A stretch of DNA of 64,000 bases, from the NCBI GenBank assembly GCA_947629315.1, contig CANRDB010000001.1:4829-68828 (forward strand). Reading direction: 5' to 3'. Each line of letters starts with the position of its first letter. Position 1 is the first letter of the stretch. A program made the translations under genes and the position numbers. Source of the DNA: an uncultured Bacilli bacterium. Lineage in GTDB: Bacteria; Bacillota_I; Bacilli_A; RF39; UBA660. The notes below the pieces were generated by a model that saw only the letters and a program-made list of their open reading frames with translations, had not been told where the DNA came from and ran no database searches. Below, one piece after another: positions 14,452 to 38,926 of this stretch.

Positions 14452-14528
14452 GTCTCAGTAGCTCAGCTGGATAGAGCATCGCCCTTCTAAGGCGAGTGTC
14501 AGGGGTTCGAATCCCTTCTGGGACACCA
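14452..14528 (+). tRNA. tRNA-Arg (anticodon TCT)
   Basis: Folded by hand. Acceptor GTCTCAG/CTGGGAC, D-arm GCTC..GAGC, anticodon stem TCGCC/GGCGA with loop CTTCTAA, T-arm AGGGG TTCGAAT CCCTT, and an encoded CCA. Confidence 0.85.
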
Positions 14529-14537
14529 TTCGAGAAT

Positions 14538-14562
14538 AACTTGCTTCGGCAAGTTTTTTTTA
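14538..14562 (+). terminator. Rho-independent terminator after tRNA-Arg
   Basis: Hairpin CTTGC-TTCG-GCAAG followed by T8. Confidence 0.6.
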
Positions 14563-14651
14563 TGCCTTTTCAAAATTTTAAAGGAAAATTCCATTCAAAT
14601 TTACATTCTTTCCTATTTCATGATATAATGATAAAAGTAAAATAATAGAGT

Positions 14652-17600
14652 ATGAGGTGTCACATGAGTCAATCGGATAAATTAAAACAAATAACAGGTA
14701 GAGTAAAACGAGAAATGGACCGCACCATTCGTGAAATTAATCGTTACTATGCCAGTTATAGTCAAGAATTAGAAAACAGACAGATTCTAGATCCTAACAA
14801 CGAAGAACAAAGGGCTTTAGCAGAGCAATTCTTTCAAAGAGAGACAGAAAATCTAAAACAGGAATTACATCAATTCATCGAATCTGGCATCAATGAAGAA
14901 GATGCCTTAAAAAGTGAATTACCTCGCGCTTATGCTTTAGTCAAAACAGCGAGTAAATTTTTATGGAACAAGCCTCACTATGATGTTCAATTAATGGGTG
15001 GTATTCTTTTAAATGATGGATATGTTTCCCAAATGGCTACTGGGGAAGGAAAAACGCTAACAGCTGCCCTCCCCGCCTATTTAAATGCTCTTCTCGGTAA
15101 AGGAGTACATGTCTTAACACCAAATGCCTATCTAGCAAAAAGAGACCAAGAAGAGATGGGGGAACTCTACGGCTTACTAGGTCTATCTTGTGGTCTTGCC
15201 AATACTGAACGATTCGATTTTACACAGGCAGATGTACAGCGCCGAATGGATGAAATTATAGCGCGAGAAGTTTCCGAACTTTCTTATCAAATCGACTGTT
15301 CTTCAGCAGGAACTAAAAAAGGACGAAAAACGGATACGGAAACAAGCCAAAGAAGAATTAAAAAATGAATGTCTCGCAAGAAAAAGAAAAGTATATCAAA
15401 TGGATATTGTCTATGGAGCAACCCATGCCATTGCTTTCGATTATCTATGGGATGGTCTTGCGCAAGAGGAACAAGGGACCGTACAACGGATTGGACAACC
15501 AAACTTTGCTATTATCGATGAGGCAGATGACGTACTTTTTGACAGTGCGAGAACTCCTTATATTATTTCCGGTTCTCAAGAAGATGAGGAATTGAGAATT
15601 CGAAGTGAAGATGCCGAAAATGTGGTGAAATCTATCAAACAGGCAAATGAGGCAGTTTCCTATCTATACGATACCATTCAATTTTGGCAAAGAAAAAATG
15701 GAGAAGTTCTAGAAGGAGAAATCCCTGAAAATGAGAAACACAAACGAAAAGATTATGTCTCTTTTGAAAATGACATGAATCTAGCGCTCATTACGACATC
15801 GCAAACTCGTGAATGTGAATTAACCACCCTAGGAGAAACGATTATTTTTCAAAAGTACTATGGACAACAAATTCAAGAGATATTAAATAAAAATCAAGAT
15901 CTTATTATGTCATTGGAACAAAATGGAGCTCCCCTACTAAAATCGAATGTGGACTATTTCATTAATTTAGATGGAGAGATTTCTCTTGCTCCTCGCGCAT
16001 TTGCTTACTTAGTCGCGGGAGAATACATCTCAGAGTTATCTAATCTATTTGTTCATTTCCGTGGGAAAGAACTACTCCAAGATAGTGAATTTATTCAAAA
16101 TGCTTTGAAAGCATGGTTCACGTATCAAGAAGGACATGATTATGCCTTTGATGAGAAAACTTCATCAGTAGTACCAATCATTAACGGTCGAATTTACAAA
16201 GGTAGAAAATACGCTAAAGGATTTCAACAAGCTCTAGAAGAAAAAACCAAAGTATTATTACAAAAGCAATTGGGAGATAGAGCGCCAAAAATCAACGAAT
16301 CCAGACTAACAGAGACATTAGCGTCTATCCCTACCAATGCTTTCTTTGCTCGCTACCAGAAAGTTGGAGGAATGACGGGTACTTCTGCTGTTTTTGCTTT
16401 CAATAACCTTTATGGTCTAGATTCCTATGCGGTACCGAGAAACCGTCCTCGACAAGTTATCGATCACGGAGAGAGATTCTATACAAATAAGGATGCGAAA
16501 TATGAAGCTATTTTCCAATTGGCATTACAAGCCTATCAAACAAAACAACCACTCCTTATTTCTACCACTTCTACGGAAGAGAGTGAACTTCTACAGAAAT
16601 ATTTAATATCTCGATTAGAACAATATCAAAGAGGACTTCCAGAACGGGAAAGAAGAGCGATTAAGATTCCAGTTTTAAATGCCAGTGTTACCAAGTTGGC
16701 AGATGAAGCTAAAATTATATCTAACGCCGGTATTCCTGGGGCGATTACCATTGCAACTGAAATGGCTGGTCGTGGAACAGATATTAAATTAGGAGGAGAA
16801 GTTCCTGATAAACAAGAATTAATTCAGTCCATGCTTAAAATTAAAGTAAGGTCTCTTGTGGAAAAAAGAAAAAAAGCAGGTCTTGTCGATGAACAAAAAT
16901 ATAAAACACAACTGACTTATAAAAAAAGAATAGACCAAGAAGCAAGACAGTGGATTATTGATAACATCGGTATGGATGCCATTGCCAAAGAAATTGAAGA
17001 ACCTTATCGCCTATTAAAACAAGAAAAAGAACAACGAGAAAGTTTTATTAAAAACAACTCAGCGTTTAAAGGATTAAAAGTTGTCGTTTGTGGACATTTC
17101 CCATCTGCACGGACAGATGACCAAGTCAAAGGTCGATGTGGAAGACAAGGTGATCCAGGAGAATATATCTTCCTAAGTGATCCTGATGATTTAGCGCATG
17201 TTGGTATCAATCCTACTACCATTGAACGTCTCAAGATTATCGCTAATAGCCAACCAGATCACTGCATCGTAGAAACAGCGAACTCCAAACTATTCCACCT
17301 TCGAAAAATGATTTTATCCGCACAACGTCATAACGATAATATGAGTCATGAAAACATTCTCTCCTCTCTTCAATTTGATGCCGCTATCAGTACTTGCCGA
17401 GAGAGTGTTAGAAAAGTAACTGATCGATTCAAGCAAACAGAAAATTACATATCTTATATGAAGATAGCGATTGATAATACCTGTCAAAGTATTCTAGAAG
17501 GTTCTTCTGAAAATAAGAACTATACTTATCCTGATATAGAACGAAGTACCATCCAAAAGGCACATCTTAATCTTCCAAAAGTATGTTCTCTTTGTGAAGA

Positions 17601-18366
17601 CTTCCTTGGGGTAGAGATATCCCCTGAACTACTCGCATCCGCTAGAACAGTTCGGGATGTGAAAAATATAATCGAACAGAAAAGTACTCAGAGATTAGAA
17701 GTCTATATCGATCAACAGAAAAAGGAACAAATCAAAAAGTTAAAAGAGAAATATCAAAAACATAATGCGAGAATCTTAAACATTTCGGAAATCGTCAATT
17801 TATTCCGACAGACAGGAATTCAAGGATTAAAAGGTTATGTGCAAGAGCGTCTTAACTTCAAAAAATATGCAAAACTTTCCGATATCGAATTAGAAGCGGA
17901 AGTTACCGAAACGCTCAATGAATCTTTCAAAGAAAAATTTTATCAAACTATCAATCGTGCATGGGATAAATTTGAAGAAGATATTGAGGAATTTAAATTG
18001 CAAGTACAATGGACGAATCAATTTGAGTCTCATCCGTTGTCACCAGAAAGCATTCAAAGTTCTATCCAACGTGATTTCTTTCACTGGATGGATACATACC
18101 AAGCAAGACTCGTCCATGATACGATTCATCCAAGCATTTCTAAAGAGAAAGGTCCAAAGGAAGTGTATCCCGTAAGAATTACGACCGAGGGCATCCAAAG
18201 AGTTGCCGATGATTATGATGAAGAATTACAGGATGAAATTACCAACATTTCGGAAGAGGCATCTGTTCTTGGAGTACTTTCTAGTGATGAAATCGTCCCA
18301 TACAAATTAAAGCCATACGTCAGTATGCCAAATCGAAACGTAGAAAACAGAGGAAGAAGAAGATAA
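14652..18366 (+). CDS. Giant divergent SecA-like translocase ATPase, about 1225 aa; reading frame interrupted by a +1 shift at the A6 tract 15315-15320
   Basis: ORF 14652..15368 carries SecA NBD1 ([48 protein letters not shown]). ORF 15400..18366 continues in the +1 frame, which is open from 15262, with [45 protein letters not shown] and [14 protein letters not shown]. Removing one A from the A6 tract gives a continuous ...[13 protein letters not shown]... reading. Confidence 0.6.
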
Positions 18367-18447: not shown

Positions 18448-18717
18448 ATGAATGATGAAATATATCAATATGCTCTACAAAAAATTGAGTGTGATAGTCA
18501 ATTCAAGCCAATTGGATGTTATGGTAATTCCCGTGGCAGTACTGGCCCAACTGGCCCTACCGGTCCGACTGGTCCCCAAGGACCCGCTAGCATCACCATA
18601 GGTACCACAACAACAGGCGCTCCAGGAACAAGTGCAGCTGTTACCAATTCTGGTACTAATCAAAATAGTATTTTAAATTTTGTGATTCCTGCAGGAGCAA
18701 CTGATGCTATGTCATAA
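18448..18717 (+). CDS. Small collagen-like (GPT-repeat) protein with a short N-terminal domain and a short C-terminal domain; BclA-like
   Basis: RBS ataggaggt. Sequence MNDEIYQYALQKIECDSQFKPIGCYGNSRGSTGPTGPTGPTGPQGPASITIGTTTTGAPG...ILNFVIPAG. The C-terminal domain is homologous to the C-terminus of the 29421..29834 segment. Confidence 0.6.
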   Translation: MNDEIYQYALQKIECDSQFKPIGCYGNSRGSTGPTGPTGPTGPQGPASITIGTTTTGAPGTSAAVTNSGTNQNSILNFVIPAGATDAMS

Positions 18718-18742
18718 ATCACAAAAAAAGAATTGATTAGAA

Positions 18743-20977
18743 TCAATCCTCAATTTCTTTAATCAACATTTGATATAACGCACGATTTCCTTCCTCTGTT
18801 AAATGAATTTTATCCACTCGTACATATTCTTTATGTTGTTGAATCTCTTCATAAAAAGGAATAATATGGAGAGACGATATTCCCAATGTTTCTAGTAATA
18901 TCTCGTCCTCTTCTGTCATCGCTACTACATATAACTCATTTTCTTGGCACAATTGGAAAACTGTTTGTATTTCTTGTTCCAATCTTGGTACCTGACTATC
19001 AAAAGCTACTACTAATCGATAAGTTAACGTATTACTATCCGCAGCTTTTTGAAGTTCTTGTTGCAAATCTTGCCAAGTAAAATCTTGCCGAACAATAAAC
19101 TGTGCTTGTTGATATTCCTGATGTAGTTCATTAAAAATATTCACTAAAACATCATTACCGTAAAAGGTAATTTTATTTTTTAATTCTTCTTCATGATGAT
19201 GAATAATCTCTTCTTTTTTCTGTTGATATCGATCTAGATAAACTTGATAAATAGATTGATAAATTAAGTTGGTGTAAGCCTTTCTTCCTTCTGGAGTTAA
19301 GTGGATACCATCCGCATAAAAATACTTTGAATGTCCTTGTGATGCAGTCTCCCAATCAATAATATGTAAATTAGAATGACTCTTACTTAACTCTTTTAAT
19401 TTACTATTTACATGGACATCTTTATCGTTAGTAACCGTAATCCAAAAGACATCTCTATCACCACACGTTTGTAAAATTTCTTCCTTACAAGAAGAAGAAC
19501 AATCTCCATTCGCACCCAAATTCAATATTACAGGATTACCTAACAGATTACTATCCTCTAATTCTTCTAAAATACCGTTCGCTACCCAAATAGAACGTGA
19601 TACCTTCGCATCAAAATATCCATTTGGAAATTGTTTATAGAGATTATCAACAGCTCCTAACATAATAGAATCCCCGACTCCAACTACGGATAACTCAGAA
19701 ACAATCTTTTGAATTTCTTGTTCCCCATTCTCTAAATCCTCTAAAACAGAGAACCAATCTTCTTGTTCCTGTTGTAATCGATCCGCATACTCTTTTTGTT
19801 TTTGTTGAATAACCTCTTCATTAGCCGCTAACTCTTCTTTTAGTCTTTTCATTTCTGCCGTATGATCCTTCGTTTGTGCATAACAATAAACACCAGGAAC
19901 ACAGATGACACACAATATGATAGCCATCGCTGCATGCATTCTCGTTCTAGCATGGGGTCGACTACTGATGCTAAAATGAAAAACGGAACCTACTACAAGC
20001 ACTCCTAAAAGAATCGATAAAATCCGTACAGAATCCGACATTGAAAAGGCTTGCAAAAAGTAAATAATCGGATACTGAACCAAGTAGATGCAATAACTTC
20101 TATCTGAAAACCAATGAACAATTCGGTTTCCTACCCCTGCTAATTTGTTTACCATCAAAGTACTATAATCAATCATCCGACAAGTAATAAGAGATACTAT
20201 CAACATTGCTACTGCCCAAGAAGGTGCAGAAGCATCGATTGTTAAAAATAACCAAACTAAGAGAACAAAATATCCTCCAAAAAGACCATAGGCAATCAGA
20301 GAATGTTTCATGTTTTTTAGAATAAGTGGATAATAATAAAACTGAATAAACCCTAAAGTCATTCCCCAAAATAAGGAAAACATTCTCGTAAACGTATGAT
20401 AGTAAACCACCATAATATCTTGCGTGCCACTCATTTGATAAAAATACCAAGCACTTCCTATCGATACTACCAATAATAGTAAACAAGGAATCATTTTATG
20501 AATATGATCTCCTATTTTACGTAATATTTGATAGAAGAATGGAAAAAGCAAATCAAATTGCAATAAAATAGAAATATACCATAAATGCATAAATGGAGAA
20601 TCTAAGTGTCTAGCAAAATAATCTAAATTCGCCCCTAATTGCCAAAAATTATTATATCCTAACAAAACAGATGTTGTCTCTGGTTTTAAATTCAACCATG
20701 TATACTGGGAACAAAAAAACACAACAAAAAGAGTTAAGAACACAGTCAATAACAAAGGAAAATATATTTTAGTAAACAGTCTCTTATAATATTCCCAAAT
20801 AGAAAAATGATTCTTATGAAAAGCTGAAACGCACGATAGATAGCCACTTAACACAAAGAAACAACAGACCGCTAAATAGCCTCCTTTTAAAACATGCAAA
20901 TGATAAAGCAAAACGGCAATGCATGATAACACTCGTAAATAATCTAGTGCATAATAATACTTCTTAGTACTTTCCAT
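18743..20977 (-). CDS. Acyltransferase-3 family membrane protein fused to SGNH hydrolase and an extra C-terminal domain (OatA-like O-acetyltransferase)
   Basis: N-terminal ten-TM acyltransferase_3 pattern (YLRVLSCIAVLLYHLHVLKGG) and an SGNH motif (VGVGDSIMLGAVDNL). Confidence 0.7.
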   Translation of the reverse strand: MESTKKYYYALDYLRVLSCIAVLLYHLHVLKGGYLAVCCFFVLSGYLSCVSAFHKNHFSIWEYYKRLFTKIYFPLLLTVFLTLFVVFFCSQYTWLNLKPETTSVLLGYNNFWQLGANLDYFARHLDSPFMHLWYISILLQFDLLFPFFYQILRKIGDHIHKMIPCLLLLVVSIGSAWYFYQMSGTQDIMVVYYHTFTRMFSLFWGMTLGFIQFYYYPLILKNMKHSLIAYGLFGGYFVLLVWLFLTIDASAPSWAVAMLIVSLITCRMIDYSTLMVNKLAGVGNRIVHWFSDRSYCIYLVQYPIIYFLQAFSMSDSVRILSILLGVLVVGSVFHFSISSRPHARTRMHAAMAIILCVICVPGVYCYAQTKDHTAEMKRLKEELAANEEVIQQKQKEYADRLQQEQEDWFSVLEDLENGEQEIQKIVSELSVVGVGDSIMLGAVDNLYKQFPNGYFDAKVSRSIWVANGILEELEDSNLLGNPVILNLGANGDCSSSCKEEILQTCGDRDVFWITVTNDKDVHVNSKLKELSKSHSNLHIIDWETASQGHSKYFYADGIHLTPEGRKAYTNLIYQSIYQVYLDRYQQKKEEIIHHHEEELKNKITFYGNDVLVNIFNELHQEYQQAQFIVRQDFTWQDLQQELQKAADSNTLTYRLVVAFDSQVPRLEQEIQTVFQLCQENELYVVAMTEEDEILLETLGISSLHIIPFYEEIQQHKEYVRVDKIHLTEEGNRALYQMLIKEIED

Positions 20978-21122
20978 ATTTCAAACCTCATTCATTGTGA
21001 TTATATATCATAAAGCCTTAAAATTCAAGACACTTTACGTCAATCCTAACTAATATTTTGTGAGAAAAAAACATGATTATTTGTTTCATTTTATTTTATG
21101 CAATTAGAAAGGAGTTATACTG

Positions 21123-23120
21123 TTGAATCAAAAAAGAGTGGCATTATATCTACGATTATCCAAAGAAGATATCGACAAGCCAACCAAGTTCTCTATCAGC
21201 GAAAGTATCAAAAATCAAGAACTATTACTGCGTGAAGAAGTGAAAAAACACCCTGATTGGGTCGTAGTAGCTGTCTATTCTGATGAAGACTTTTCAGGAG
21301 CAGGAACTTATCGACCAAGCTTTGACAAAATGATTCATGCCTGTGAAAAGCACATGATTGATATCATTCTCTGTAAAAGTCAGTCCCGTTTTTCTAGAGA
21401 TATGGAATTAATTGAAAAATATATTCATAACAAATTTAAAGAATGGAATATACGATTCATTAGTATCGTAGATAATGCCGATACTGATAACGATGGCAAT
21501 AAAAAATCTAGACAGATTAATGCTCTTGTCAATGAATGGTTTCTAGAGGATTTATCCGATAATATTCGGGCAACTTTACGAACAAAATGGCAGCATGGAG
21601 AATGTACCGCTGCTTTCGCTAAATATGGATTTCTAAAAGATCCCCAACATAAAAATCACCTAATCATAGATACGGTTGCTAGTCAAACCATTCAAGAAAT
21701 TGCTCATCTCTTTTTAGAGGGAAAAGGTCCAGAAACCATCGCTCACATTTTAGAACAGAAGCATATTCCTAGTCCTTATGAATACAAACTACAAATGGGA
21801 AGTAAACTAAAAATTCCTTTGCTTTCCTTAAACCATCCAAAAATAATTACTAAAAACGGAAAATATATTTTTACCCTTTTTCCAAGTGGAGAACCAATAG
21901 ACCATGTCGTCCTATCCATCCTACCATTTCAAGATTACGATATGACACTAACTCTCATAAAACAAAGTGGCAATGTAAAGGTTTATTATTCCCAGGAGAA
22001 ATTCTCTTCTGCTATCGAAACCGTATTGCCGGTTGAACATTCTTCATTTTGGAGACAATTGCCTATCAATCTTTCTATTTCTCATATTCAACTACTGGCT
22101 ATCTATTGTCTTCCAAACAATTTAGAAAAAACTTATTTAGAATGGGAAATAAACATCCATACCCTACCGTCTCATGATTTTTCTTTAAACATCCAATCCT
22201 TTGATGCAATACACCAACCAATTGATTTTTGGCAGTATCGAATCAGAAAAAAATATCAGTGGAATAGTCGGACAATCTATCACATTTTGAAAGATGAAAC
22301 TTATCATGGTACCTTAATTCAAGGAAAAACAAAGCGAATCAGTTATAAAAATCATACTAGTATTGCTACTCCCAAAGAGCAATGGTATGTTCAAGAAAAT
22401 ATTCTCCCTAAAATTCTAGATGATCAAACTTGGATAGCTATTCAAAATAAATTACAACTACATCCACGCGCAAGCAAAAATGGAAAACACCCTATCTTTA
22501 CTGGAAAAGTTTTTTGTGGAGTATGTGGAAAACCTCTTCAAAAAAACTCGAGCAGTTCTCTTGCTTCCCCTGTTAAAAAAGAATATTTAATTTGTAAAGC
22601 AAGAAAAGAACATTGGAAGAATTGTGAAAACAAAAAATCATTTCCCGTTTTAGAATTACAAAAATTAATCATTACTCAATTTCAAAATTTATGGAATTCC
22701 TATTACGATATGACTACCTTAAAGCAGATTCATAAGGAAGAACCCCATCATCAAACTATAGACGATCTCATGAAAGAAGAACAAAATTTACAAGAAATTA
22801 TCCAGCAGAATAACCAAATTCTTTATCAATTATACAAAGATAAAAGCACTGGCCTCATGGATGATTCTTGTTTTCATACCCTACTTCTACAAAATCAACA
22901 GGAAATGGATACTTATCACCAAAGATTGCAAATGATTGCCCAAGAGTTAAAACAGATTCAAACGAAACAGGAATTTTTCATGTCTACTGTGTGTGAATTT
23001 CTCAATACTCATTCCTTTGAAGACTATTTTTCAACCATTCTACAGCATTTTATTAGCAGCATTTTCATTGGAAAGCTGAACCATCATCAAAGAACAATCC
23101 AAATTCATTGGAAAATCTAA
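21123..23120 (+). CDS. Large serine recombinase (SpoIVCA/CisA-like), TTG start
   Basis: [13 protein letters not shown] catalytic-serine motif, a resolvase N-domain, a recombinase domain, a Cys-rich zinc ribbon (CGVCGKPL...[11 protein letters not shown]) and a coiled-coil tail. RBS aaaggag. Confidence 0.85.
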
Positions 23121-23132
23121 TTTTGTGGTTTA

Positions 23133-23281
<149 letters not shown>

Positions 23282-23301
<20 letters not shown>

Positions 23302-24796
23302 TAACTACTCTTTTTCCCTGTTCTATATTGCCAATTTGTATTCGTTGAATAAAATTCTTTACCGTCTTAAGGGAAAGTTCAAGTTTTCTTTTAGAAAAAG
23401 AAAATGACATTTGTTCTTTTTTCATATTGGCAAGAGTATTTGATAACTTCTCTAACTCTTTGATATAACTTTTTTTGAGATTTTGAAAAACCTCATCATC
23501 TAGTTGTTGTTGAACATAATCGTCATACACTTTTTTTAAGCCTCGTTCTTTTTGATGGTAATCTTTTTCTAATCGTTCAAATTCTTTCTTATATAATAGA
23601 TTCTGTTCTATACTATATTGCTTCTCATATTCTAAAAGCAATTGTTCGTCGACAAATTGATGATAAAACTTCAAAAATTCTTTGAACACTAAAGATTCTA
23701 TCACATCCAAACGAATAGAGGTATGATTATCACAATGTTGCCAATAACTTCTTCTATCACGACAAACTAAATACGAATACACAGAATGGCTAGAAGAATT
23801 TTTTTCAAAGGATTGTCCACATTTTTGACAATATATTTTTTTACTAAACTCATAAATTTTACCCGTTTTAGATTGAATTCTCGTCTTTTGTTGCATTCTT
23901 CTTTGTACCTCATTCCACATCGATAAAGAAATAATCGGGTCATGCTGATGAGATACAACAATCCAATCCTTTTTTTGAAGAGAAATTACCTTTTTATTTT
24001 TATAGGAAATTTTTCGATATTTTCCCTGTACTACACTACCAATATACACTTCATTTTTTAAAATATCTGCAATTGTTTTTTCACTCCATTGATTACTAGT
24101 CGATGGTCCATAATATTTAGAACCTATTTCTTTTTTATATTGACTGGGAGTTGGAATCCCTTGATGATTCAAACACTGCTTAATTTTAGAATATCCATAA
24201 CCTTTCGCATATAACGCATATATTTGTTGAACATATTTAGAAGCAATCGGGTCAATTTCTAAATGATTTTTATCTTTCTTTTGGTAACCAAAAGGCGCAA
24301 AAGAACCGGTAAATAGACCAACTTCTTTTTTATTTCGTAATGTTTTACGAATATTTATAGAAGAATCTTCCAAATACCATTCATTCATCAAAGCATTGAT
24401 TTGTCTGGTTTTTTTATTTTCTTCTACAGAGGTATCAGCATGATCAACTAAACTGATAAAACGAACGTTCCACTCTTTAAATTTATTATGAATATATTGT
24501 TCAATTACTTCTAAATCTCTCGAAAAGCGAGACTGACTCTTACATAATACAATATCAATATTTCCTTGTTCACAATCTTTTAGCATGCGGATAAAAGCTG
24601 GTCTTTCTCTATCGATACCAGAGTAATCCTCATCAATATAAATATCAAAGATATCCCATCCTTCTTCTTGAACTTTTTGAAGTAACATTCTCCTTTGATT
24701 TTGAATACTTTCACTAAAGTCTTTTTTATCAATATCTTCTTTGGATAATCGCAAATAGATTGCTACTCTATTGTTCCCTATCATAAGATTCCTCAT
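23282..24796 (-). CDS. Large serine recombinase, paralog of 21123..23120
   Basis: [13 protein letters not shown] motif with extensive N-domain identity to the upstream recombinase (…[35 protein letters not shown]…), a zinc ribbon (CQKCGQ…[11 protein letters not shown]) and a coiled-coil tail. Confidence 0.85.
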
Positions 24797-24983
24797 TTTG
24801 AGAAAGAATTTCTTGTTCTAATACCGCCAACAACTGACGATTAAAAGTTTCTTTCCTTTGTTCCATAGACTTTTCCTCATCATGGAATACATTGATTATT
24901 TCAATATTATATTTCATATTTTCACCATTACAAAATATGAAAAAAAGCGAAGATTTATATCTCCACTTCTTTCTCCTGCAAAA

Positions 24984-26012
24984 TCATTTTCGCTGTTGGC
25001 TAATATCTAATACCCATAAAATATTCGATGGTAGAATACTTCCACAATACGAGCATATCTTATCAAAGAGTCCCACATTGGCGCCACAATTGTGACATTT
25101 TTTCACACTATTCATCGTAAACTTCGGATAATAATTTTGATTACGAATCAAGGTTACTGTTTCTTTTCCCTGCACTTTTTTGATGCGACCATTGCGTTCA
25201 AAATACTTTCGAATAATAAAAGTAATTCGAATGGCAGGAATATTCCCCTTCTTGATAACTTTATAAGTATCATACTCTAAAATTTCAAAATCTACTAAAT
25301 CTTGATATTGAGGAAAAATTTTCTCATCATAGTAATGCACCAACAATTGGTAATTTAAATCTTGAATAATCTTTTGATTACTCATCCGAACTTTATCAAT
25401 CATAATTCTATCATTCCTTAAGTCACGATAGGTAATCACTTTTACCAAAAGATAAGGAATCAAAAGAAAAGTATACAATAGATGAAGAGTAAATAGCATA
25501 ACAGGTAGTGTCACGAACATCAACATAACGGCAATAAACCAAGGATACTCTCCTGACTGTAAAGTTCCCATAAACGATATACCTGTCAAAATCATGCAAG
25601 TGCTTCCCAAAAAGATTTTATACTTTTTCATAGAAAAAATCTGTTTAAAGGATTGTGTCAAATTTTTTTGATGAACTCCCTGTTCTAAATAAAAAGAAGC
25701 TCCACAATAAGGGCAACCATCGTAAAACTCTTTTTCAGTAGCATGATATCCACATTCAGAACAAGTAAATTCATTATCCCCTCTAGATAATGTCATTGTA
25801 TAAGTTATGTTATCATCAAATTTCTTTTCACGATAAAGACGTTTTCCACCTTGATAATAATTTTTCTCTATCTTATTAGCTTTATAAACAGAATCGTTTC
25901 GGTTTCCATTTAAAGTACGAACAAATAACTGATCTTTATGTCGAAAAATCTCCTCTACTACAAGATTCTTTTTAGCAAGTCTTTGTAAATGCATTTGTAA
26001 AGGACTTGGCAT
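24984..26012 (-). CDS. Membrane protein with two CxxC…CxxC zinc-ribbon motifs flanking a TM region
   Basis: CSECGYH…CPYCGA near the N-terminus, TM helices in the middle, and CHNCGAN…CSYCGS at the C-terminus. Confidence 0.4.
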   Translation of the reverse strand: MPSPLQMHLQRLAKKNLVVEEIFRHKDQLFVRTLNGNRNDSVYKANKIEKNYYQGGKRLYREKKFDDNITYTMTLSRGDNEFTCSECGYHATEKEFYDGCPYCGASFYLEQGVHQKNLTQSFKQIFSMKKYKIFLGSTCMILTGISFMGTLQSGEYPWFIAVMLMFVTLPVMLFTLHLLYTFLLIPYLLVKVITYRDLRNDRIMIDKVRMSNQKIIQDLNYQLLVHYYDEKIFPQYQDLVDFEILEYDTYKVIKKGNIPAIRITFIIRKYFERNGRIKKVQGKETVTLIRNQNYYPKFTMNSVKKCHNCGANVGLFDKICSYCGSILPSNILWVLDISQQRK

Positions 26013-26084
26013 ACTATCACACTCCTACTATTCTCATTATAACAAAAAAAGTCCTCATCACAACTATTTTTTTCTATTTTGACA

Positions 26085-26159
26085 ATGAACTATGGAGCAA
26101 CTGGTCCAGTAGGTCCTACTGGAGACGTTGGCCCTACGGGTCCTACTGCACTCACTTAA
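26085..26159 (+). pseudogene. Very short collagen-like ORF/fragment ([24 protein letters not shown])
   Basis: Read in the correct frame. No RBS, and the ATG overlaps a TTGACA hexamer. Its 5' end is collinear with the start of the 29421..29834 segment. Confidence 0.35.
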
Positions 26160-26256
26160 AAGTGGCACTTTTGCCAAAAATTAGAACGAAAATAAGCACT
26201 TTACATTTCATTTGAAATATTATATAATACAAGTAACTAGAAAGAAGGGATTATAA

Positions 26257-27651
26257 ATGAAAAAAGTAGTAGGAACAGTAATGAAAGGGATGCTTGTTAC
26301 TTCAGGAGTTGTCACTGCTGTTGGTTGTACATTAGCTATCAGTAATCATTTGTTGAAATCAGATGATCTTGTTCTATCCAATCACAATGGTAGCGAAGTA
26401 AAACAAGCAAATGTTTTAGCGGTCGCTCAAAATCAAGTAAAGGAAGCGGAAGTTCAAGAGGCAAAAGCCAACCAAGAATTGACAAAAGCAACAAATGAAA
26501 AAGCAGAGGCAGAAAAAGAAGTTCAAAAAGCGAAAGAAACTGTGAAAGAGGTTCAAAAGGAAAAAAGCAAAGCCGAAGCACAATTAAAAGAAGCCAAAAC
26601 AGAAGAAGAAAGAAAACAGGTAGAAGATCAAATTAAAGTTTTAGAAGAAAAAGTGAAAGAAGCTGAAAATAATCAAAAAGCAGCAGAATCAAAAGTACAA
26701 GAAGCAGAGACTAAGGTTCAAGAGGCTGAAGTGAAAGTTCAAGAGGCTGAAGCCAAGGTTCAAGAAGCTGAGGCTAAAGTTCAAGAAGTACAAGAGACAG
26801 AAATGAAGAAACAAGAAGTAGAAAAACAAGTTCAAGAAGTTCTTCCAGCAAATCCTTCAAAAGAAGAAACTCAAACTACTGTCAAAGAAGAAAACACTAC
26901 CAAACCAGTTGAAAATAATCAACAAGTAACGACTCAAGAAACAAAGCAACCAGAGACAAAACAAACTGAAACGAAACAACCAGAGACAAAGCAAGTTGAA
27001 ACAAAACAGACTGAAACGAAAAAAGAAGAATCTTCAACAAACAATAATTCTTCTAATAATAGTTCTTCTAGATTAACGCAAGAGGCTTTAGAGGCTGCAG
27101 CGAGAGCAGAACAAAAATGGAATGAGGAATATCAAAAATTCCTTGCTGATCAAAAAGCAGAAGCAGATGCTAAAAAGCAAGCAAGAGATGAGGAAGCTAA
27201 AAAAGCAGAAGAGGCTGCTGAAAAAGAATTGGAAGAAAGAAGACAAAGAGAATCAACAGACAGTTTAAAGAACTTTGGTTCAGCGACTACTGATACCGTA
27301 TTTGGAGATAGAACTTTTACATTTGCTCAAAAGAATGTAGATTTACCATTTAATCCAGATATCAAAGAAAATCCAAAGAAAGTGACTTGTACAGGAGACC
27401 ATTGCGGAAAGAATGAACAAGGTTACATTTGGTTTGCTAGATTTAATAACAATTTAAATCTTGATATCTTTAAAGAACCTGGTAGTGATCGTTATGTAAG
27501 TAGTGTTCTTATTGGAAAACGTGGCGATGTAGAATATTGGACGCAATATGCACCAAGTGTTGTAAACGGTCATCAATTTGTAGAGTGGAAAGTAACAGAT
27601 ACTACTGAATATGGTATGAAAATTAAAGTTTATACTGCCATTTATAAGTAA
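26257..27651 (+). CDS. Secreted repeat-rich coiled-coil protein with a globular C-terminal domain
   Basis: Signal peptide, KVQEAE tandem repeats (18-bp units at 26690-26790), TKQ(P/T)E repeats (15-bp units at 26940-27010), and a Cys-containing C-terminal domain. RBS gaaagaaggga. Confidence 0.6.
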   Translation: MKKVVGTVMKGMLVTSGVVTAVGCTLAISNHLLKSDDLVLSNHNGSEVKQANVLAVAQNQVKEAEVQEAKANQELTKATNEKAEAEKEVQKAKETVKEVQKEKSKAEAQLKEAKTEEERKQVEDQIKVLEEKVKEAENNQKAAESKVQEAETKVQEAEVKVQEAEAKVQEAEAKVQEVQETEMKKQEVEKQVQEVLPANPSKEETQTTVKEENTTKPVENNQQVTTQETKQPETKQTETKQPETKQVETKQTETKKEESSTNNNSSNNSSSRLTQEALEAAARAEQKWNEEYQKFLADQKAEADAKKQARDEEAKKAEEAAEKELEERRQRESTDSLKNFGSATTDTVFGDRTFTFAQKNVDLPFNPDIKENPKKVTCTGDHCGKNEQGYIWFARFNNNLNLDIFKEPGSDRYVSSVLIGKRGDVEYWTQYAPSVVNGHQFVEWKVTDTTEYGMKIKVYTAIYK

Positions 27652-27830
27652 TGAAAGAGCGAAACAATTCGCTCTTTTCTTTTGACCTATGATTAAAACT
27701 ATCCTTTTAGAATAATATACATTGAGGAGGTTTGATGATGAAAGTAATCAGTCATTTTAAAGATAATGGTGAAAATTTAACAAAAGTTATAGAAGAATTG
27801 TTAAAAAATATCATTCAAAAATAAAGGCAA

Positions 27831-30925
<3,095 letters not shown>

Positions 30926-32152: not shown

Positions 32153-33802
32153 TTATTCATATGGATAAGTAGACGAACTCACATTTGCCACTTCTTGAAT
32201 CATATCATCTGTAATCGAAGAATCTGTAGCTTCTAAAGAAATTTTCATAAGAGTAAATTCTGAAAATGTATAAAGCATCACTTTTTCAATGACACGATTC
32301 TTACCATCGTGATAAAATCCCTTATAAATATAATACTCACGACCATTCATTTTCTTTTTTTTAGAAAAAGTAAGCAATTGATAGGTGCCGTATCTAGAAT
32401 TATAATCTTTTATCGTTTTATTTAAAATATCGATGTGAGAAGTAATGATTTGTTCCGCATCAGTATAAACATTATCCAACTGGTAATCTAACATATATTT
32501 ATAGTAAGAACTTAAGAATTCGTAAGTATAATCCATATAGTAAGATCTACTACCAAATATATCAGTAGAATATAAATAATTCGTAATCTCTAGCCAATGA
32601 TTTGGTAATTGGATAGTCCATTGTTCTGCAAGATGTTCGGACTGATTGACAATCCTTTTTAGATTAGAGTATAGATTATCTCCCCTCATCTCTGTATTCG
32701 TATAAAAACCTACTTCTTTAGCAGAAGTTACACGGATATGATTGACCAATTCAGCAGGTACACTATCGCTATCAATGGTGATTCTCAAAGTACAGTTTTT
32801 CGCAATCTCAAAAAGCATTGTAACTTCTTCTGTTTCAAAAGGATTTATATAGGATTCACTACTTGAGAAAGTATAGGTTTCTCGAAAAATATAAAGTGGA
32901 TAGGCGCTGTCTTCTACTTTTTCAAGAGTAGTTTGATAGTTTTGATACATTTGAGAGTTCTGTCTTTTAAACTGGGAATCTGCATACATATCATCCAAAA
33001 CAGTATAGATTGGATATAAACTGGTCATAAAACTAACTTCAAAATTTAATACTGTATCCTCATGTTCATACCGATATCGATAATGAGAGACATTTGACTC
33101 AAAACGAGTTAATTCTAAAACATCCGGTATTTCGTATTCAATTCTATAGTTTACACTAGCGAGTTCCCCTTTTTTGGTTTTGAGAAATTGGTTATTTAAA
33201 TCTTTATCTTGATTCCAGCCAATACTAGAAAGTTCCATTGGGTACTGATAATTTTGCTGCTCCTGTTGAGGATGAACTAGTGAGAAATCTTCTAACATGT
33301 ATTCAAAACTATCCAATAAAATATCAAACTGTTGATGAGGTGCCTGATAACTCCACATCACGATTCCCTCATCTATTTTGGTAAAAATAAATAAAATCTG
33401 ATTCTCTGCCGATTCATAGAGAACCTGATATCCTGGATATTGGCGTTTAGAAATTGTAATATCTTCTTCAGCAATTAATTCATAACCTTCATTTTGTTTA
33501 CTAAATTCATATAGTAATGTTCCTTTTAAATTTTCCAATGTTGTATAATCCGTTTCTTCTAGAGGAAGATACTGTAAAGAAACAGAACTCTCATCATGAC
33601 TTAAAACCGTCTGATATTCCTGTTCTTCTTGTACTTTCCATGTAGTATCATAATGGAATGTATAATAGTCATTCTCATATACTCTCGTTTGAATACGACT
33701 TGGATTCCATACTATATAGGCAATTACACAAGAGATTCCTAATGTCATCGTTACAAAGAAAGCAATCACTACTAATTGATATTTCTTCCACCAGTTTTTC
33801 AT
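32153..33802 (-). CDS. Signal-anchored hypothetical protein, last gene of the peptidase operon
   Basis: N-terminal TM (KYQLVVIAFFVTMTLGISCVIAYIVW). The start overlaps the stop of the upstream gene by 4 bp. Confidence 0.4.
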   Translation of the reverse strand: MKNWWKKYQLVVIAFFVTMTLGISCVIAYIVWNPSRIQTRVYENDYYTFHYDTTWKVQEEQEYQTVLSHDESSVSLQYLPLEETDYTTLENLKGTLLYEFSKQNEGYELIAEEDITISKRQYPGYQVLYESAENQILFIFTKIDEGIVMWSYQAPHQQFDILLDSFEYMLEDFSLVHPQQEQQNYQYPMELSSIGWNQDKDLNNQFLKTKKGELASVNYRIEYEIPDVLELTRFESNVSHYRYRYEHEDTVLNFEVSFMTSLYPIYTVLDDMYADSQFKRQNSQMYQNYQTTLEKVEDSAYPLYIFRETYTFSSSESYINPFETEEVTMLFEIAKNCTLRITIDSDSVPAELVNHIRVTSAKEVGFYTNTEMRGDNLYSNLKRIVNQSEHLAEQWTIQLPNHWLEITNYLYSTDIFGSRSYYMDYTYEFLSSYYKYMLDYQLDNVYTDAEQIITSHIDILNKTIKDYNSRYGTYQLLTFSKKKKMNGREYYIYKGFYHDGKNRVIEKVMLYTFSEFTLMKISLEATDSSITDDMIQEVANVSSSTYPYE

Positions 33803-35496
33803 AATTTCACCATCACAATCAATAAGTATTGAAACTGCGACATGACTATGACTTTATATTTTTTATTTTCATACACATATCGATTATCTTCATTGGATAC
33901 TTCTTGATATCCATCCTCTAATAATTTTGCTTGAAAGGCCGATGCATATTGCATATTACTGACGTATTCTGGAGTTTCGTTTTTATAACGTAGACTGACA
34001 ACCCCGTCTTGATAACTTCCCTTGATTAGTTTTAATGGAATAGTCTTTTCAATATCACCAATGGCAGCATACTTCTTCCAAATTTTATCAGGAATCGTGT
34101 TCACTTCTTGTTCTTGAGTATCTTTTGTATACCGATAATATCGTTCTTTCAAATCATCAAAAGGAACAGACACAATGGTATCAAAATCTTTTTGCTTGAT
34201 GTTATCATATGCTTCTTCTATCAATTCTACAGGGAGAGAAAAAGAAACATTACTATCAATAGACACAGGAACATTCATTCCCACAACCGCACCATCTAAA
34301 TTGAATAATGGACTTCCCGCATCAGATGCTCTCATCGGAATGATAGTTCGTACATATCCTCTCATACGAAGGGCTATTCCAGACTGCAAACTAAATCCCA
34401 CACCAGTCTTGCTATTTACCGTAAAGATTGGATCTTCTAATTGGGCATTCGTAGGACTAATCGTGACTGGATTTCCTTTTTCCTCTTTTAATTTCAAAAG
34501 AGCGATATCCGTATTGGGATTGATGGTGATAATTCCATCCAAATCATAATAATTTCCTTGATAATCTCGGATAGCAATATACTGTGCATTCTCTAAGGAA
34601 CTTTTAATAAAACTCCAAGTTGTTATCAAAATTCCCTCTTTTAAAAAGAAACCATGAGCAGTTGTAATCAATTCATTGTTATAATAAGAATTCAGTAAAA
34701 CAACACTATCAATGGTACGAGTTAACAATTTTTGAAAAGTATTTTTAGAAACATGGTCTAATTGATCATAGTTGTAAATGGAAGAAAAGTTATCACTTCC
34801 CCGAAAAGAATCAATAATATTGGTAGTATTTTTACTTTCTAAAGTCTCTATATTTTGATAGTAGACATTGATACTAGATTCATCAAAAGCTTCCTCAAAT
34901 ATATAGAACAGTTTATACTCACCATCTATTTTTTGCCATTCATAGTAAAGAGTTATATCGACATTCATTTCCTCTTTGTATAAAGGATTATTCTCATCGA
35001 TATTCATCATGGAAACATTAGGCACAAGAATAGTAGATATAAAACTTTTATCATCCACTGCTGTCACATAAATCTCTCCCAAGATAGAGTAACGACAATC
35101 TCGCAAATTGATAGCTTGAAAGGTTTGACTTAAATTCGTATAAGTATAAGAATTGAGAAACTCATCATCATCAGATTGAACAGGTGTGGAATAACGAAAA
35201 TCCATAAAAGTATTATAACGTTGATAATACTCTAACGTCGTTTCCTCTTCTCCGTTCGCTAAAAACAATAATTCCGTAACCTGTTTACTTTTCTCTTTGA
35301 TTTCTTGTTCCACATCATTACTCTCTACCTGTATCTCTTTCGTTAATGTGTATTGGGAATCAAATTCTTTCATGAGGTCTTGCAATTGCTTAGTATTCGT
35401 TAAAATGGCTTTAGAGGAGTCAAAATGCAAAGTCATAGCATACAAAGTAGTTATACTCATGAGACAGAGCATTAGAAATATACTAACTTTCTTCAT
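33799..35496 (-). CDS. Secreted protein with a C-terminal trypsin-like (S1) domain, possibly catalytically inactive
   Basis: Signal peptide. His motif TTAHGFF and Asp motif DIALLKL are present. The GDSGGP position reads SDAGSP, so the serine appears replaced by alanine. Confidence 0.45.
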   Translation of the reverse strand: MKKVSIFLMLCLMSITTLYAMTLHFDSSKAILTNTKQLQDLMKEFDSQYTLTKEIQVESNDVEQEIKEKSKQVTELLFLANGEEETTLEYYQRYNTFMDFRYSTPVQSDDDEFLNSYTYTNLSQTFQAINLRDCRYSILGEIYVTAVDDKSFISTILVPNVSMMNIDENNPLYKEEMNVDITLYYEWQKIDGEYKLFYIFEEAFDESSINVYYQNIETLESKNTTNIIDSFRGSDNFSSIYNYDQLDHVSKNTFQKLLTRTIDSVVLLNSYYNNELITTAHGFFLKEGILITTWSFIKSSLENAQYIAIRDYQGNYYDLDGIITINPNTDIALLKLKEEKGNPVTISPTNAQLEDPIFTVNSKTGVGFSLQSGIALRMRGYVRTIIPMRASDAGSPLFNLDGAVVGMNVPVSIDSNVSFSLPVELIEEAYDNIKQKDFDTIVSVPFDDLKERYYRYTKDTQEQEVNTIPDKIWKKYAAIGDIEKTIPLKLIKGSYQDGVVSLRYKNETPEYVSNMQYASAFQAKLLEDGYQEVSNEDNRYVYENKKYKVIVMSQFQYLLIVMVKL

Positions 35497-36680
35497 GACA
35501 ATCTCTCCTTTAATACCGCCACGATATATTTACTCGCATCCTTAGCTTTATTTCCATTTAAATACGTATCGTGAAAAGCTTCAGCTATCGTCTCATCATA
35601 GATATATCGACCACTATTATCACGTGCTACCGCATAAGAAGATATGGTAGCTCTCCATTCATCTATGGATAACTTACTTTGAAAATCTTTTTGATAATTT
35701 TGATAGGCTTCTTCTACAATTCCCTGAGCATACTCACCAGACTTTGACTCCACTCCAATTTGTGATAACACACTATAGTTTTCAGAATCAATTAATAAAA
35801 TAGAAGTAATTCCATGGCTTTTTAAAAGAGCGATGAAAGACAAATAATGTCCCATCTCATGGGCAACTGGCGAATAAATCGTCGCATTGGGTGGAAAATG
35901 TCCAGCGTGAGAAGCATCTTCGGTTGCTACCTTTAATCTCGTAGGATTTAAAAAGTAAGAAGAACTTAAAAACATTTGGGTCTTAATTACCAATTGGTAT
36001 TGGGAAGATGAAATATTCGCAAAAGCAAAAATCGGTAAAAAAGAAGCAATGACACCACTACGAGACATACTCTCATTTTTAAGAGTTAAATTCGTTAGAT
36101 ATCCCCTTGTCGTAGGAAATTCTTCATATATCTTCTCAAATACTTTTCCCAGTTCTTCAGCAAACTCCACATCCATTTCACATAAATTAATAGCAGTAAT
36201 TCCATATTTCACCGTAAAAGTCTTCTCTAACTCTTGTATTTTTAAAGGACACTTCCTCTTTTGTAGTTTAGAATCCTCTTCAATCAATTGATAAGCTAAT
36301 TCTTTCGTATCTAGATGATCACATTTATAAGTATTATCAGAAACAACAGAAGAAACAGTTCCTCCTGGTTGCATAACCGTTCCCTCTTGTAATTCACAAA
36401 GATTATTGGTAAGTTGCATCGTAGCTACTTTCTCCTCTAAGTGATTCTTGCGAAAATAATAGGATGGCTCTTGATGGAACAAAAGATATCCTAACAACAA
36501 TAAACCACATAGACAAATACTCATCCCGGACCCAGCAAGAATCATTAGAACGTGATTTCTATTTTTCGTCTTTTTACTACTATAACCACAATTTGGACAG
36601 TACCGAAACCGAGTTTCTAATTCGTGATGGCAGTGGAAACACTTCATATCATAGCCTCCTATTCTCTTCCATTTTATCAC
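35493..36680 (-). CDS. Membrane-anchored zinc metallopeptidase (HEXXH) with an N-terminal cytoplasmic zinc ribbon
   Basis: CFHCHHELETRFRYCPNCGY zinc ribbon, a TM segment, and VAHEMGHYLS. Confidence 0.5.
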   Translation of the reverse strand: MIKWKRIGGYDMKCFHCHHELETRFRYCPNCGYSSKKTKNRNHVLMILAGSGMSICLCGLLLLGYLLFHQEPSYYFRKNHLEEKVATMQLTNNLCELQEGTVMQPGGTVSSVVSDNTYKCDHLDTKELAYQLIEEDSKLQKRKCPLKIQELEKTFTVKYGITAINLCEMDVEFAEELGKVFEKIYEEFPTTRGYLTNLTLKNESMSRSGVIASFLPIFAFANISSSQYQLVIKTQMFLSSSYFLNPTRLKVATEDASHAGHFPPNATIYSPVAHEMGHYLSFIALLKSHGITSILLIDSENYSVLSQIGVESKSGEYAQGIVEEAYQNYQKDFQSKLSIDEWRATISSYAVARDNSGRYIYDETIAEAFHDTYLNGNKAKDASKYIVAVLKERLS

Positions 36681-36708
36681 AATTTTGACAAGAAAAAAAT
36701 AGGTTTCC

Positions 36709-38907: not shown

Positions 38908-38926
38908 TTTTTTTACTCCTTACTTT

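Follow-up and report, generated by a model that had tools for sequence, protein, structure and literature searches.

Canonical SecA uses the tip motif of its two-helix finger and its zinc tail with SecY, SecB and the ribosome. The secA2 gene of C. difficile lies beside the variable gene of an S-layer client, and some SecA2 systems export proteins that have no signal peptide. SecA2 proteins lack the C-terminal tail, are shorter than SecA1 and have a reduced wing domain (PMC7503281). Secondary SecA_DEAD proteins of Gram-negative phyla have been associated with genes for type I secretion (Kamneva et al. 2015, PMC4452313). The literature closest to the gene analyzed here deals with these two groups, and no description of a giant SecA-like family was found. 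The gene lies at 14664–18366 on the plus strand of a 64,000-nucleotide stretch of contig CANRDB010000001.1 (assembly GCA_947629315.1, positions 4,829 to 68,828) from an uncultured Bacilli bacterium; the whole stretch is referred to as the window. It is written in two reading frames that are the halves of one SecA-fold gene. Our reading, with a probability of about 0.75, is that this is a single member of a rare giant SecA family, that its product would be an accessory motor, that one extra base from a recent mutation or a homopolymer error separates the two frames, and that no recoding takes place.

Two reading frames make up one SecA-like gene

When the two open reading frames (ORFs) are joined, Pfam assigns SecA_DEAD to residues 51–579 (E = 9e-74), P-loop_SecA to residues 603–848 (7e-37) and the C-terminal half of SecA_PP_bind, and the matches span the frame junction. 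Since both halves match the same family in the right order at these E-values, chance is excluded, and the proposal of the initial annotation is borne out that a change to the +1 frame, within a few A-rich codons, divides one SecA homolog. A family profile made from the window protein and 22 relatives aligns with residues 27–817 of E. coli SecA in four blocks (E = 5e-157), with the helical scaffold and wing included. The AlphaFold (AF2) model of a syntenic ortholog, P0003, has a predicted local distance difference test (pLDDT) value of 85 and a predicted template modeling (pTM) score of 0.78. The model superposes on full-length SecA, and its best target-normalised template modeling (TM) score, 0.85, is to 6itc_A, a substrate-engaged SecA-SecY complex. 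Profile and model alike show a complete SecA architecture of NBD1, PPXD, NBD2, helical scaffold, wing and two-helix hairpin. No match to SecA_SW (PF07516) or SEC-C (PF02810) was found by Pfam in the joined protein or in any family member.

Domain mapping with hidden Markov models (HMMs) locates PPXD and HSD/HWD and assigns the extra length to insertions in NBD1, PPXD and NBD2 and to the C-terminal region. The extra residues number about 400 and comprise the NBD1 insertion, an enlarged PPXD, a 90-amino-acid (aa) insertion in NBD2, a 66-aa insert specific to this copy, and a new C-terminal region that replaces the zinc tail. The NBD1 insertion is located between LGLSCGL and (A/V)Y..DI.YG and is helical in the P0003 model. 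The insertion after LGLSCGL had been recognized in the initial annotation, and those in PPXD and NBD2 and the copy-specific one are to be added to it. The ATPase motifs of the window copy (Walker A MATGEGKT, Walker B IIDEADDV and the arginine finger) are intact and fall in invariant columns of the family; the arginine-finger sequence GRCGRQG is invariant throughout. The finger-tip/IRA1 motif GIxLRGYAQxDPLxEYK is conserved nowhere in the family, which keeps only the preceding W..F/H and Q. Alignment with canonical SecAs indicates that the zinc tail CPCGSGxKYKxCCG is absent from the whole family. Judging by established SecA biology, such a protein would act as an ATP-driven motor with a polypeptide clamp formed from PPXD, NBD2 and HSD.

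The probable start is ATG 14664, because GAGGTG lies at 14654–14659 and homologs begin at the residue aligned to M5 of the ORF listed from 14652. The protein is far longer than canonical SecA, as had been stated, but the size from this start would be 1233 aa and not about 1225 aa. A putative promoter precedes the gene (Table 1), and TGnTATAAT-like elements are also found upstream of the orthologs in L092, L084 and L088. The tRNA-Arg beside the gene was likewise correctly noted, and the ortholog in L083 is preceded by this same 3′ end and flank.

Position and nature of the frame change

The two frames are open together over 15262–15365, in agreement with the initial placement of the switch within 15262–15368. 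Three A-runs lie inside this overlap, namely A6 at 15315–15320, A5 at 15326–15330 and A6 at 15360–15365. The codon-usage likelihood for the switch position is flat within about 5 log units and uninformative, and the switch was therefore placed by homology. Frame 0 agrees with the homologs to about 15296 (homolog sequence RMKKILDEEAAKLLADVKD), and frame +1 agrees with them from about 15337 (homolog RKKAKFELKNE...RRKAYQADITYG), which narrows the interval to 15297–15337.

Deletion of one A from 15315–15320 restores a single open frame of 1237 codons counted from 14652, as the initial annotation had proposed, and this A6 is the simplest site for the extra base. It is not the sole one, since the A5 tract at 15326–15330 offers an equally valid repair, giving ...KKGRKRIRKQ.... 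The equation of the restored KKDEKR with the KDEKREAY region of SecA (B. subtilis) proved spurious; KKDEKR lies within the 64-aa family-specific insertion, and the true counterpart of that region, LARKRKVY, is 20 residues downstream, among the residues that align with the canonical REAYAADITYG. The NBD1 insertion of the window copy is about 10 residues shorter than those of its nearest relatives exactly at the frame-change spot. An out-of-frame deletion, instead of a single added A, may also have produced the shift.

The defect is single and local, with no further stop or shift in 3.7 kb. ORF2 has no ATG, GTG or TTG over 15262–15399, and its first start codon at 15400 is not preceded by a Shine-Dalgarno sequence. 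Since Walker A is in ORF1 and Walker B in ORF2, it is unlikely that each half works by itself. Translation from ATG 14664 would end at 15368 after 234 residues, yielding Walker A without Walker B, and the remaining 988 codons would have no ribosome-binding site. The sequence as written is thus predicted to give no functional protein, only a 234-residue N-terminal fragment. The locus is best annotated as a single disrupted gene, not as a pair of proteins.

A rare family of giant SecA-like proteins

A word-indexed search of 5.8 billion proteins returned about 39 relatives of 797–1237 aa, most of them longer than 1,100 aa, which share 29–44% identity with the window protein across as much as 96% of it. 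The matches ranked next are ordinary SecAs that cover only 22–43% of the query. An exhaustive HMM search of 1.84 billion representatives at 50% identity gave about 40 sequences scoring 600–1760 bits, against a canonical plateau of about 500–550. Family members have a length of 1,000–1,290 aa and the full SecA domain set with large insertions. The window copy shares these traits; it aligns end to end, has the NBD1 and NBD2 insertions, and shares the C-terminal family motifs, for example at the position of AY.HC.ESERA.IVRE..NP. The sole publicly named member is MBQ7104930.1, a 'hypothetical protein [Bacilli bacterium]' at NCBI. On sequence grounds, these proteins constitute a rare, unnamed family of very long SecA paralogs in uncultured low-GC Bacilli. 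A scan of JGI metagenomes with the junction peptide gave no relatives, and a scan of a genome collection with the family alignment gave ordinary SecA only among the matches listed, the patterns being universal SecA motifs.

A viral, plasmid or known-defense origin was considered and rejected, as tblastn against phages and plasmids, IMG/VR, PHROGs and PADLOC gave matches that are negligible or at the level of canonical SecA. Separately, the viral-labeled IMG/VR loci L123–L169 (contigs of 70–325 kb) contain SecA homologs about 30–36% identical to the query, again the canonical level; these contigs are either huge phages with secA or host contamination. A genomic island integrated at tRNA-Arg was also rejected, since the downstream sequence contains no directly repeated copy of the tRNA 3′ end.

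The gene order in the window is enolase, SpoIIIAH, GerE, GerM, tRNA-Arg, the SecA-like gene, a collagen-like ORF and Acyl_transf_3. Intact orthologs occupy the enolase-SpoIIIAH-GerE-GerM-tRNA locus in L081 (called at 1144 aa, or 1158 aa when counted from an upstream ATG) and in L092 (GCA_947628235.1; 1124 aa), and L083 (GCA_947632115.1) has a 1151-aa ortholog with the tRNA flank in common. Between these genomes, identity is 91–96% for enolase, 94% for GerE, 85–86% for FtsK, 78% for SpoIIIAH, 66–68% for GerM and 50% for Acyl_transf_3. For the SecA-like protein it is 38–44%, both among the orthologs and to the window copy. The ratio of nonsynonymous to synonymous substitution rates (dN/dS) between the L081 and L083 genes is 0.15, which indicates purifying selection on the family. 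In L084, L085 and L088, more distant members adjoin pyruvate phosphate dikinase, and in L086 the surrounding genes are pheST, a xerC-like gene, uvrC and mutL; no collagen gene or recombinase occurs within 10 kb of these four.

A housekeeping SecA is not expected to diverge to 40% between species so close, and we therefore infer that the family is an accessory paralog and most unlikely to serve as the housekeeping SecA. Disruption is seen in a second family member as well, which is split into P0397 (416 aa) and P0396 (738 aa) on a single NCBI contig of 5,238 bp. The pair is more than 90% identical to the intact 1195-aa P0393 (MBQ7104930.1), with the break between residues 416 and 458. The dispensability implied by two disrupted copies also marks the gene as accessory.

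Mutation, assembly error and other explanations

The initial annotation had left a choice between sequencing error, pseudogenization and slippage. Slippage is the least likely of these, and mutation is somewhat more likely than a homopolymer error; a recent inactivating mutation is the explanation toward which we lean.

Several points weigh against our reading of the locus. The same-species contig L089 matches the window with 1 mismatch in 2937 nt (99.97%) and ends at 15291, 24 nt before the A6; L090 is of the same species too, and both contigs, (near-)identical to the window, end before the tract. An intact version is absent from a collection of 15 billion proteins by exact look-up, the recall of the index being imperfect as the window's own ORFs were not returned in the homology search. 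The look-ups comprised ORF1, ORF2, enolase and four repaired variants (start at M1 or M5, repair at A6 or A5), and no intact form is on record. The window copy keeps all catalytic motifs and shows nothing that would suggest prolonged decay. Of 238 strongly conserved family columns it departs from the consensus at 19, compared with 2 in the nearest relatives and 26–34 in other intact members, a count that does not discriminate; its use as a test of relaxed constraint was rejected. No canonical SecA is found in the 64-kb window, the only part of the genome covered. Finally, the function of this probable accessory protein, as a polypeptide-handling motor, would be drawn from the fold only.

On the database side, ORF2 (P0122) is clustered under an unrelated 52-aa representative, P0123, from the 3x contig L091, which has no similarity to the window. 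This is a clustering artefact, and because of it a homology search does not see the gene of the window itself. In three assemblies of a close relative whose enolase is 94% identical, the contigs L093, L094 and L095 end just after GerM (end stretches at 1–93, 1–71 and 1–71), where tRNA-Arg and the SecA-like gene would follow; these ends fit a region that is repeated or varies among strains and so interrupts assembly.

Alternatively, the extra base can be an assembly or sequencing error, a serious candidate though the lesser one, in which the organism would have A5 (or A4 at 15326–15330) and make an intact 1,233-aa protein. The shift falls within homopolymers, a classic site of indel errors, and the remainder of the gene is flawless with all motifs intact, as would be expected of an error or a very recent event. 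The sister assemblies are low-coverage metagenomes (contig k-mer coverage of 2–6x in L081, L089, L094 and L095), and the orthologs in L081, L083 and L092 are intact. However, the window has 206 A/T runs of at least 6 and 587 of at least 5, and still the SecA-like gene is the sole obviously split one among its ORFs of 100 aa or more, about 55 in number. Because no other window gene is visibly split, homopolymer indel errors are rare in this assembly. The A6 is also short for Illumina-type homopolymer errors, and the disruption of a second family member implies that loss is tolerated.

The next explanation concerns the collagen-like gene that follows. It appears to be one gene in four pieces (18448–18703, 23150–23266, 26104–26148 and 29446–29834), interrupted by three elements (18704–23149, 23267–26103 and 26149–29445; 4.4, 2.8 and 3.3 kb) that each contain a large serine recombinase gene. 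The core at the element junctions is GCAACTG at five of the six and CTACTG at the sixth, and inverted repeats, though imperfect ones, mark the ends of the elements. When the pieces are joined in silico after ACTG, they form one ORF of 268 aa without interruption. In the sister genomes (L081 13511–15421, L083 4906–6859, L092 2138–3944), the SecA-like gene is immediately followed by a truncated collagen-like 5′ piece, which meets the 3′ end of a large serine recombinase gene on the opposite strand. The arrangement is reminiscent of skin, SPbeta and gin, intervening elements specific to sporulation (PMC4191935, PMC5595907), and makes the collagen-like gene of this uncultured spore-former a candidate for reconstitution under developmental control. 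The 5′ piece may be co-transcribed with the SecA-like gene. The SecA-like gene had been placed at the head of a secreted-protein and collagen region. That region is one signal-less collagen-like gene cut by recombinase elements, not a set of substrates, and the view of the SecA-like gene as heading a secreted-substrate set is weakened because of this.

It is unlikely that the protein is a dedicated SecA2-type export motor whose client is the collagen-like surface protein next to it or some other secreted protein encoded nearby. The C-terminal tail is missing here as in SecA2 proteins (PMC7503281). The SecA-like gene and the collagen-like 5′ piece, 75–80 nt apart on the same strand, are kept together in the window, L081/L082, L083 and L092, which recalls the S-layer arrangement of C. 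difficile, and a client without a signal peptide would have counterparts in other SecA2 systems. However, the repaired protein is below cutoff for all four SecA2 models, TIGR03714, TIGR04397, TIGR04221 and NF012136 (352 of 930, 330 of 1085, 254 of 725 and 220 of 1100 bits). SecA2 proteins are shorter than SecA1, whereas this protein exceeds any SecA2 by about 400 aa, and the two-helix-finger tip motif is not conserved. No SecY2, Asp1-3, Gtf or serine-rich client was found in the Pfam-scanned ORFs of at least 100 aa at 18.4–43.7 kb, nor in six related loci. The collagen-like protein resembles the BclA-type spore-surface proteins, which are assembled inside the mother cell, and collagen genes are absent from the 10 kb around more distant family members.

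More doubtful still is a functional module of the ATPase and the collagen-like gene. In such a module, the ATPase would be a dedicated, co-evolving motor that unfolds, exports or assembles a signal-less spore- or cell-surface protein, and the collagen gene would need three serine-recombinase excisions. The divergence of the ATPase would then reflect diversifying pressure, and the frameshift would turn the module off.

An unusually long housekeeping SecA, the sole one in the genome, is a very improbable explanation. It would account for the lack of a canonical secA in the window and for the full SecA fold with its ATPase motifs, and housekeeping SecAs of about 1,100 aa do exist in Bacteroidota (NCBIfam NF009536, model length 1118). 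Yet the syntenic orthologs are far less alike than the enolases beside them, and the repaired protein reaches only 419 of the 814 bits required by the SecA equivalog NF009538, 393 of 800 for the equivalog TIGR00963 and 306 of 1493 for NF009536. The finger-tip and zinc-tail motifs are lost, the gene is disrupted twice (the window copy and P0397/P0396), and only about 40 clusters exist, compared with at least 120 close enolase relatives at 86% identity or more. The initial annotation had preferred a SecA2-type translocase to the housekeeping SecA; the rejection of a housekeeping role stands, given the divergent orthologs and scores at half the cutoffs or less, and the SecA2 assignment does not, given the four models and the lack of SecY2, Asp and Gtf.

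Programmed recoding or phase variation, in which +1 ribosomal frameshifting, transcriptional slippage or slipped-strand mutation would regulate the full-length ATPase, is the most improbable of all: the A6 lets tRNA-Lys re-pair in the +1 frame, a weak Shine-Dalgarno-like AGGA (15308–15311) lies 3 nt upstream of the first AAA at a spacing reminiscent of prfB, and the locus, like many contingency loci, varies greatly from species to species, but all homologs are single ORFs without a conserved slippery site, the position is in a non-conserved insertion, the 0-frame A-site codon is a common AAA or GGA and neither a stop nor rare, Rfam finds no element nearby, and the A6, being one of 129 A/T runs of 6 in the window, is unremarkable and far below the 8–9 or so A/T that efficient transcriptional slippage needs and the 7 or more typical of phase-variable tracts.

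Features of the gene and its surroundings

The coordinates are collected in Table 1. The third element carries as cargo, beside its serine recombinase, a gene (26257–27651, plus strand) for a protein of 464 aa that begins with a signal- or lipoprotein-like sequence. This protein has long KVQEAE-type coiled-coil repeats and TKQPE repeats, and no Pfam match. Further downstream, at 32153–40512, a four-gene minus-strand operon with a trypsin-like peptidase (33799–35496) and a clostripain-family peptidase (36709–38907) is followed by a sortase (39580–40512, plus strand). This secreted-protease and surface cluster is unrelated to the SecA-like gene in strand and distance. A T-box leader (42563–42743, minus strand) upstream of seryl-tRNA synthetase (41207–42580) is ordinary.

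Table 1. Coordinates of the SecA-like gene, its parts and flanking features in the window.
Feature	Position	Strand	Remark
tRNA-Arg (anticodon TCT)	14452–14528	+	ARAGORN, Rfam tRNA; directly upstream of SecA-like gene
Terminator-like hairpin	14538–14555		After tRNA-Arg; terminator scan
Sigma-70-type promoter-like site (putative)	14600–14629	+	TTTACA-18-TATAAT, extended -10 TG; 11/12 consensus matches only
Shine-Dalgarno GAGGTG	14654–14659	+	Sequence; precedes ATG 14664
ORF1, 5′ part of gene, frame 0	14652–15368 as listed (238 aa); 14664–15368 from probable true start	+	N-terminal helices, first half of NBD1, then out of frame to TGA 15366–15368
Walker A MATGEGKT	15033–15056	+	In ORF1
LGLSCGL	15177–15197	+	In ORF1
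NBD1 insertion, 64 aa	15198–15390	+	About 62–75 aa in relatives, 8 residues in E. coli SecA; hhalign, alignment
Frame switch, 0 to +1	15297–15337	+	Homology; within variable NBD1 insertion
A6 homopolymer	15315–15320	+	Simplest extra-base site
ORF2, 3′ part, frame +1	15400–18366 (988 aa)	+	Frame open from 15262, back to TAG 15259–15261
Walker B IIDEADDV	15511–15534	+	In ORF2
GMTGTS of NBD2	16369–16386	+	In ORF2, after enlarged PPXD
Further NBD2 motif	16756–16797	+	In ORF2
NBD2 insertion, 90 aa	16798–17067	+	In ORF2
Arginine-finger motif, then HSD/HWD	17116–17163	+	In ORF2
Insert unique to window copy, 66 aa	17719–17916	+	In ORF2
Two-helix-finger region	17950–18132	+	In ORF2; without canonical tip motif
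Tail, 77 aa	18133–18363	+	In ORF2
Collagen-like (BclA-like) gene, 5′ piece	18448–18717	+	Own GGAGG ribosome-binding site, no signal peptide
Large serine recombinase gene, first element	21123–23120	+	One per element
Large serine recombinase gene, second element	23282–24796	-	One per element
Large serine recombinase gene, third element	27831–29420	+	One per element

Comparison with known systems

Housekeeping SecA (TIGR00963/NF009538; 2vda, 1m6n, 6itc) has the same domain order and whole-length fold as the window protein, with Walker A, a DEAD-box Walker B and GRxGRQG in common and similar N-terminal helices ahead of NBD1. The window protein differs in being about 400 residues longer, in having neither the finger-tip motif nor the zinc tail, and in reaching about half of the model cutoff. 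The family also evolves several-fold faster than the neighboring genes.

The Gram-positive SecA2 proteins (6sxh of C. difficile, Listeria NF012136, B. anthracis TIGR04397, mycobacterial TIGR04221 and aSec TIGR03714) are likewise non-canonical SecA-fold ATPases in a Firmicute. They resemble the present family in that the C-terminal tail is absent and in that, in one clade, the gene adjoins a variable surface-protein gene. However, the family is much longer, scores at roughly one-third or less of the cutoff with all SecA2 models, and has no SecY2, Asp, Gtf or SlaP-type partners nearby.

The long SecAs of Bacteroidota (NF009536, PRK12901, about 1,100 aa) reach a comparable length through insertions in the SecA scaffold, but in another lineage and with another insertion pattern, to which the low NF009536 score corresponds, and they are housekeeping SecAs. 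The secondary SecA_DEAD proteins of Planctomycetes, Verrucomicrobia and Proteobacteria are also SecA-derived extras outside SecA1 and SecA2, recognized at the domain level; in contrast to them, the present family occurs in Bacilli, keeps all SecA domains and has no type I secretion neighbors. If the giant proteins are working motors, the roles of SecA-type ATPases would extend beyond the SecA1/SecA2 scheme.

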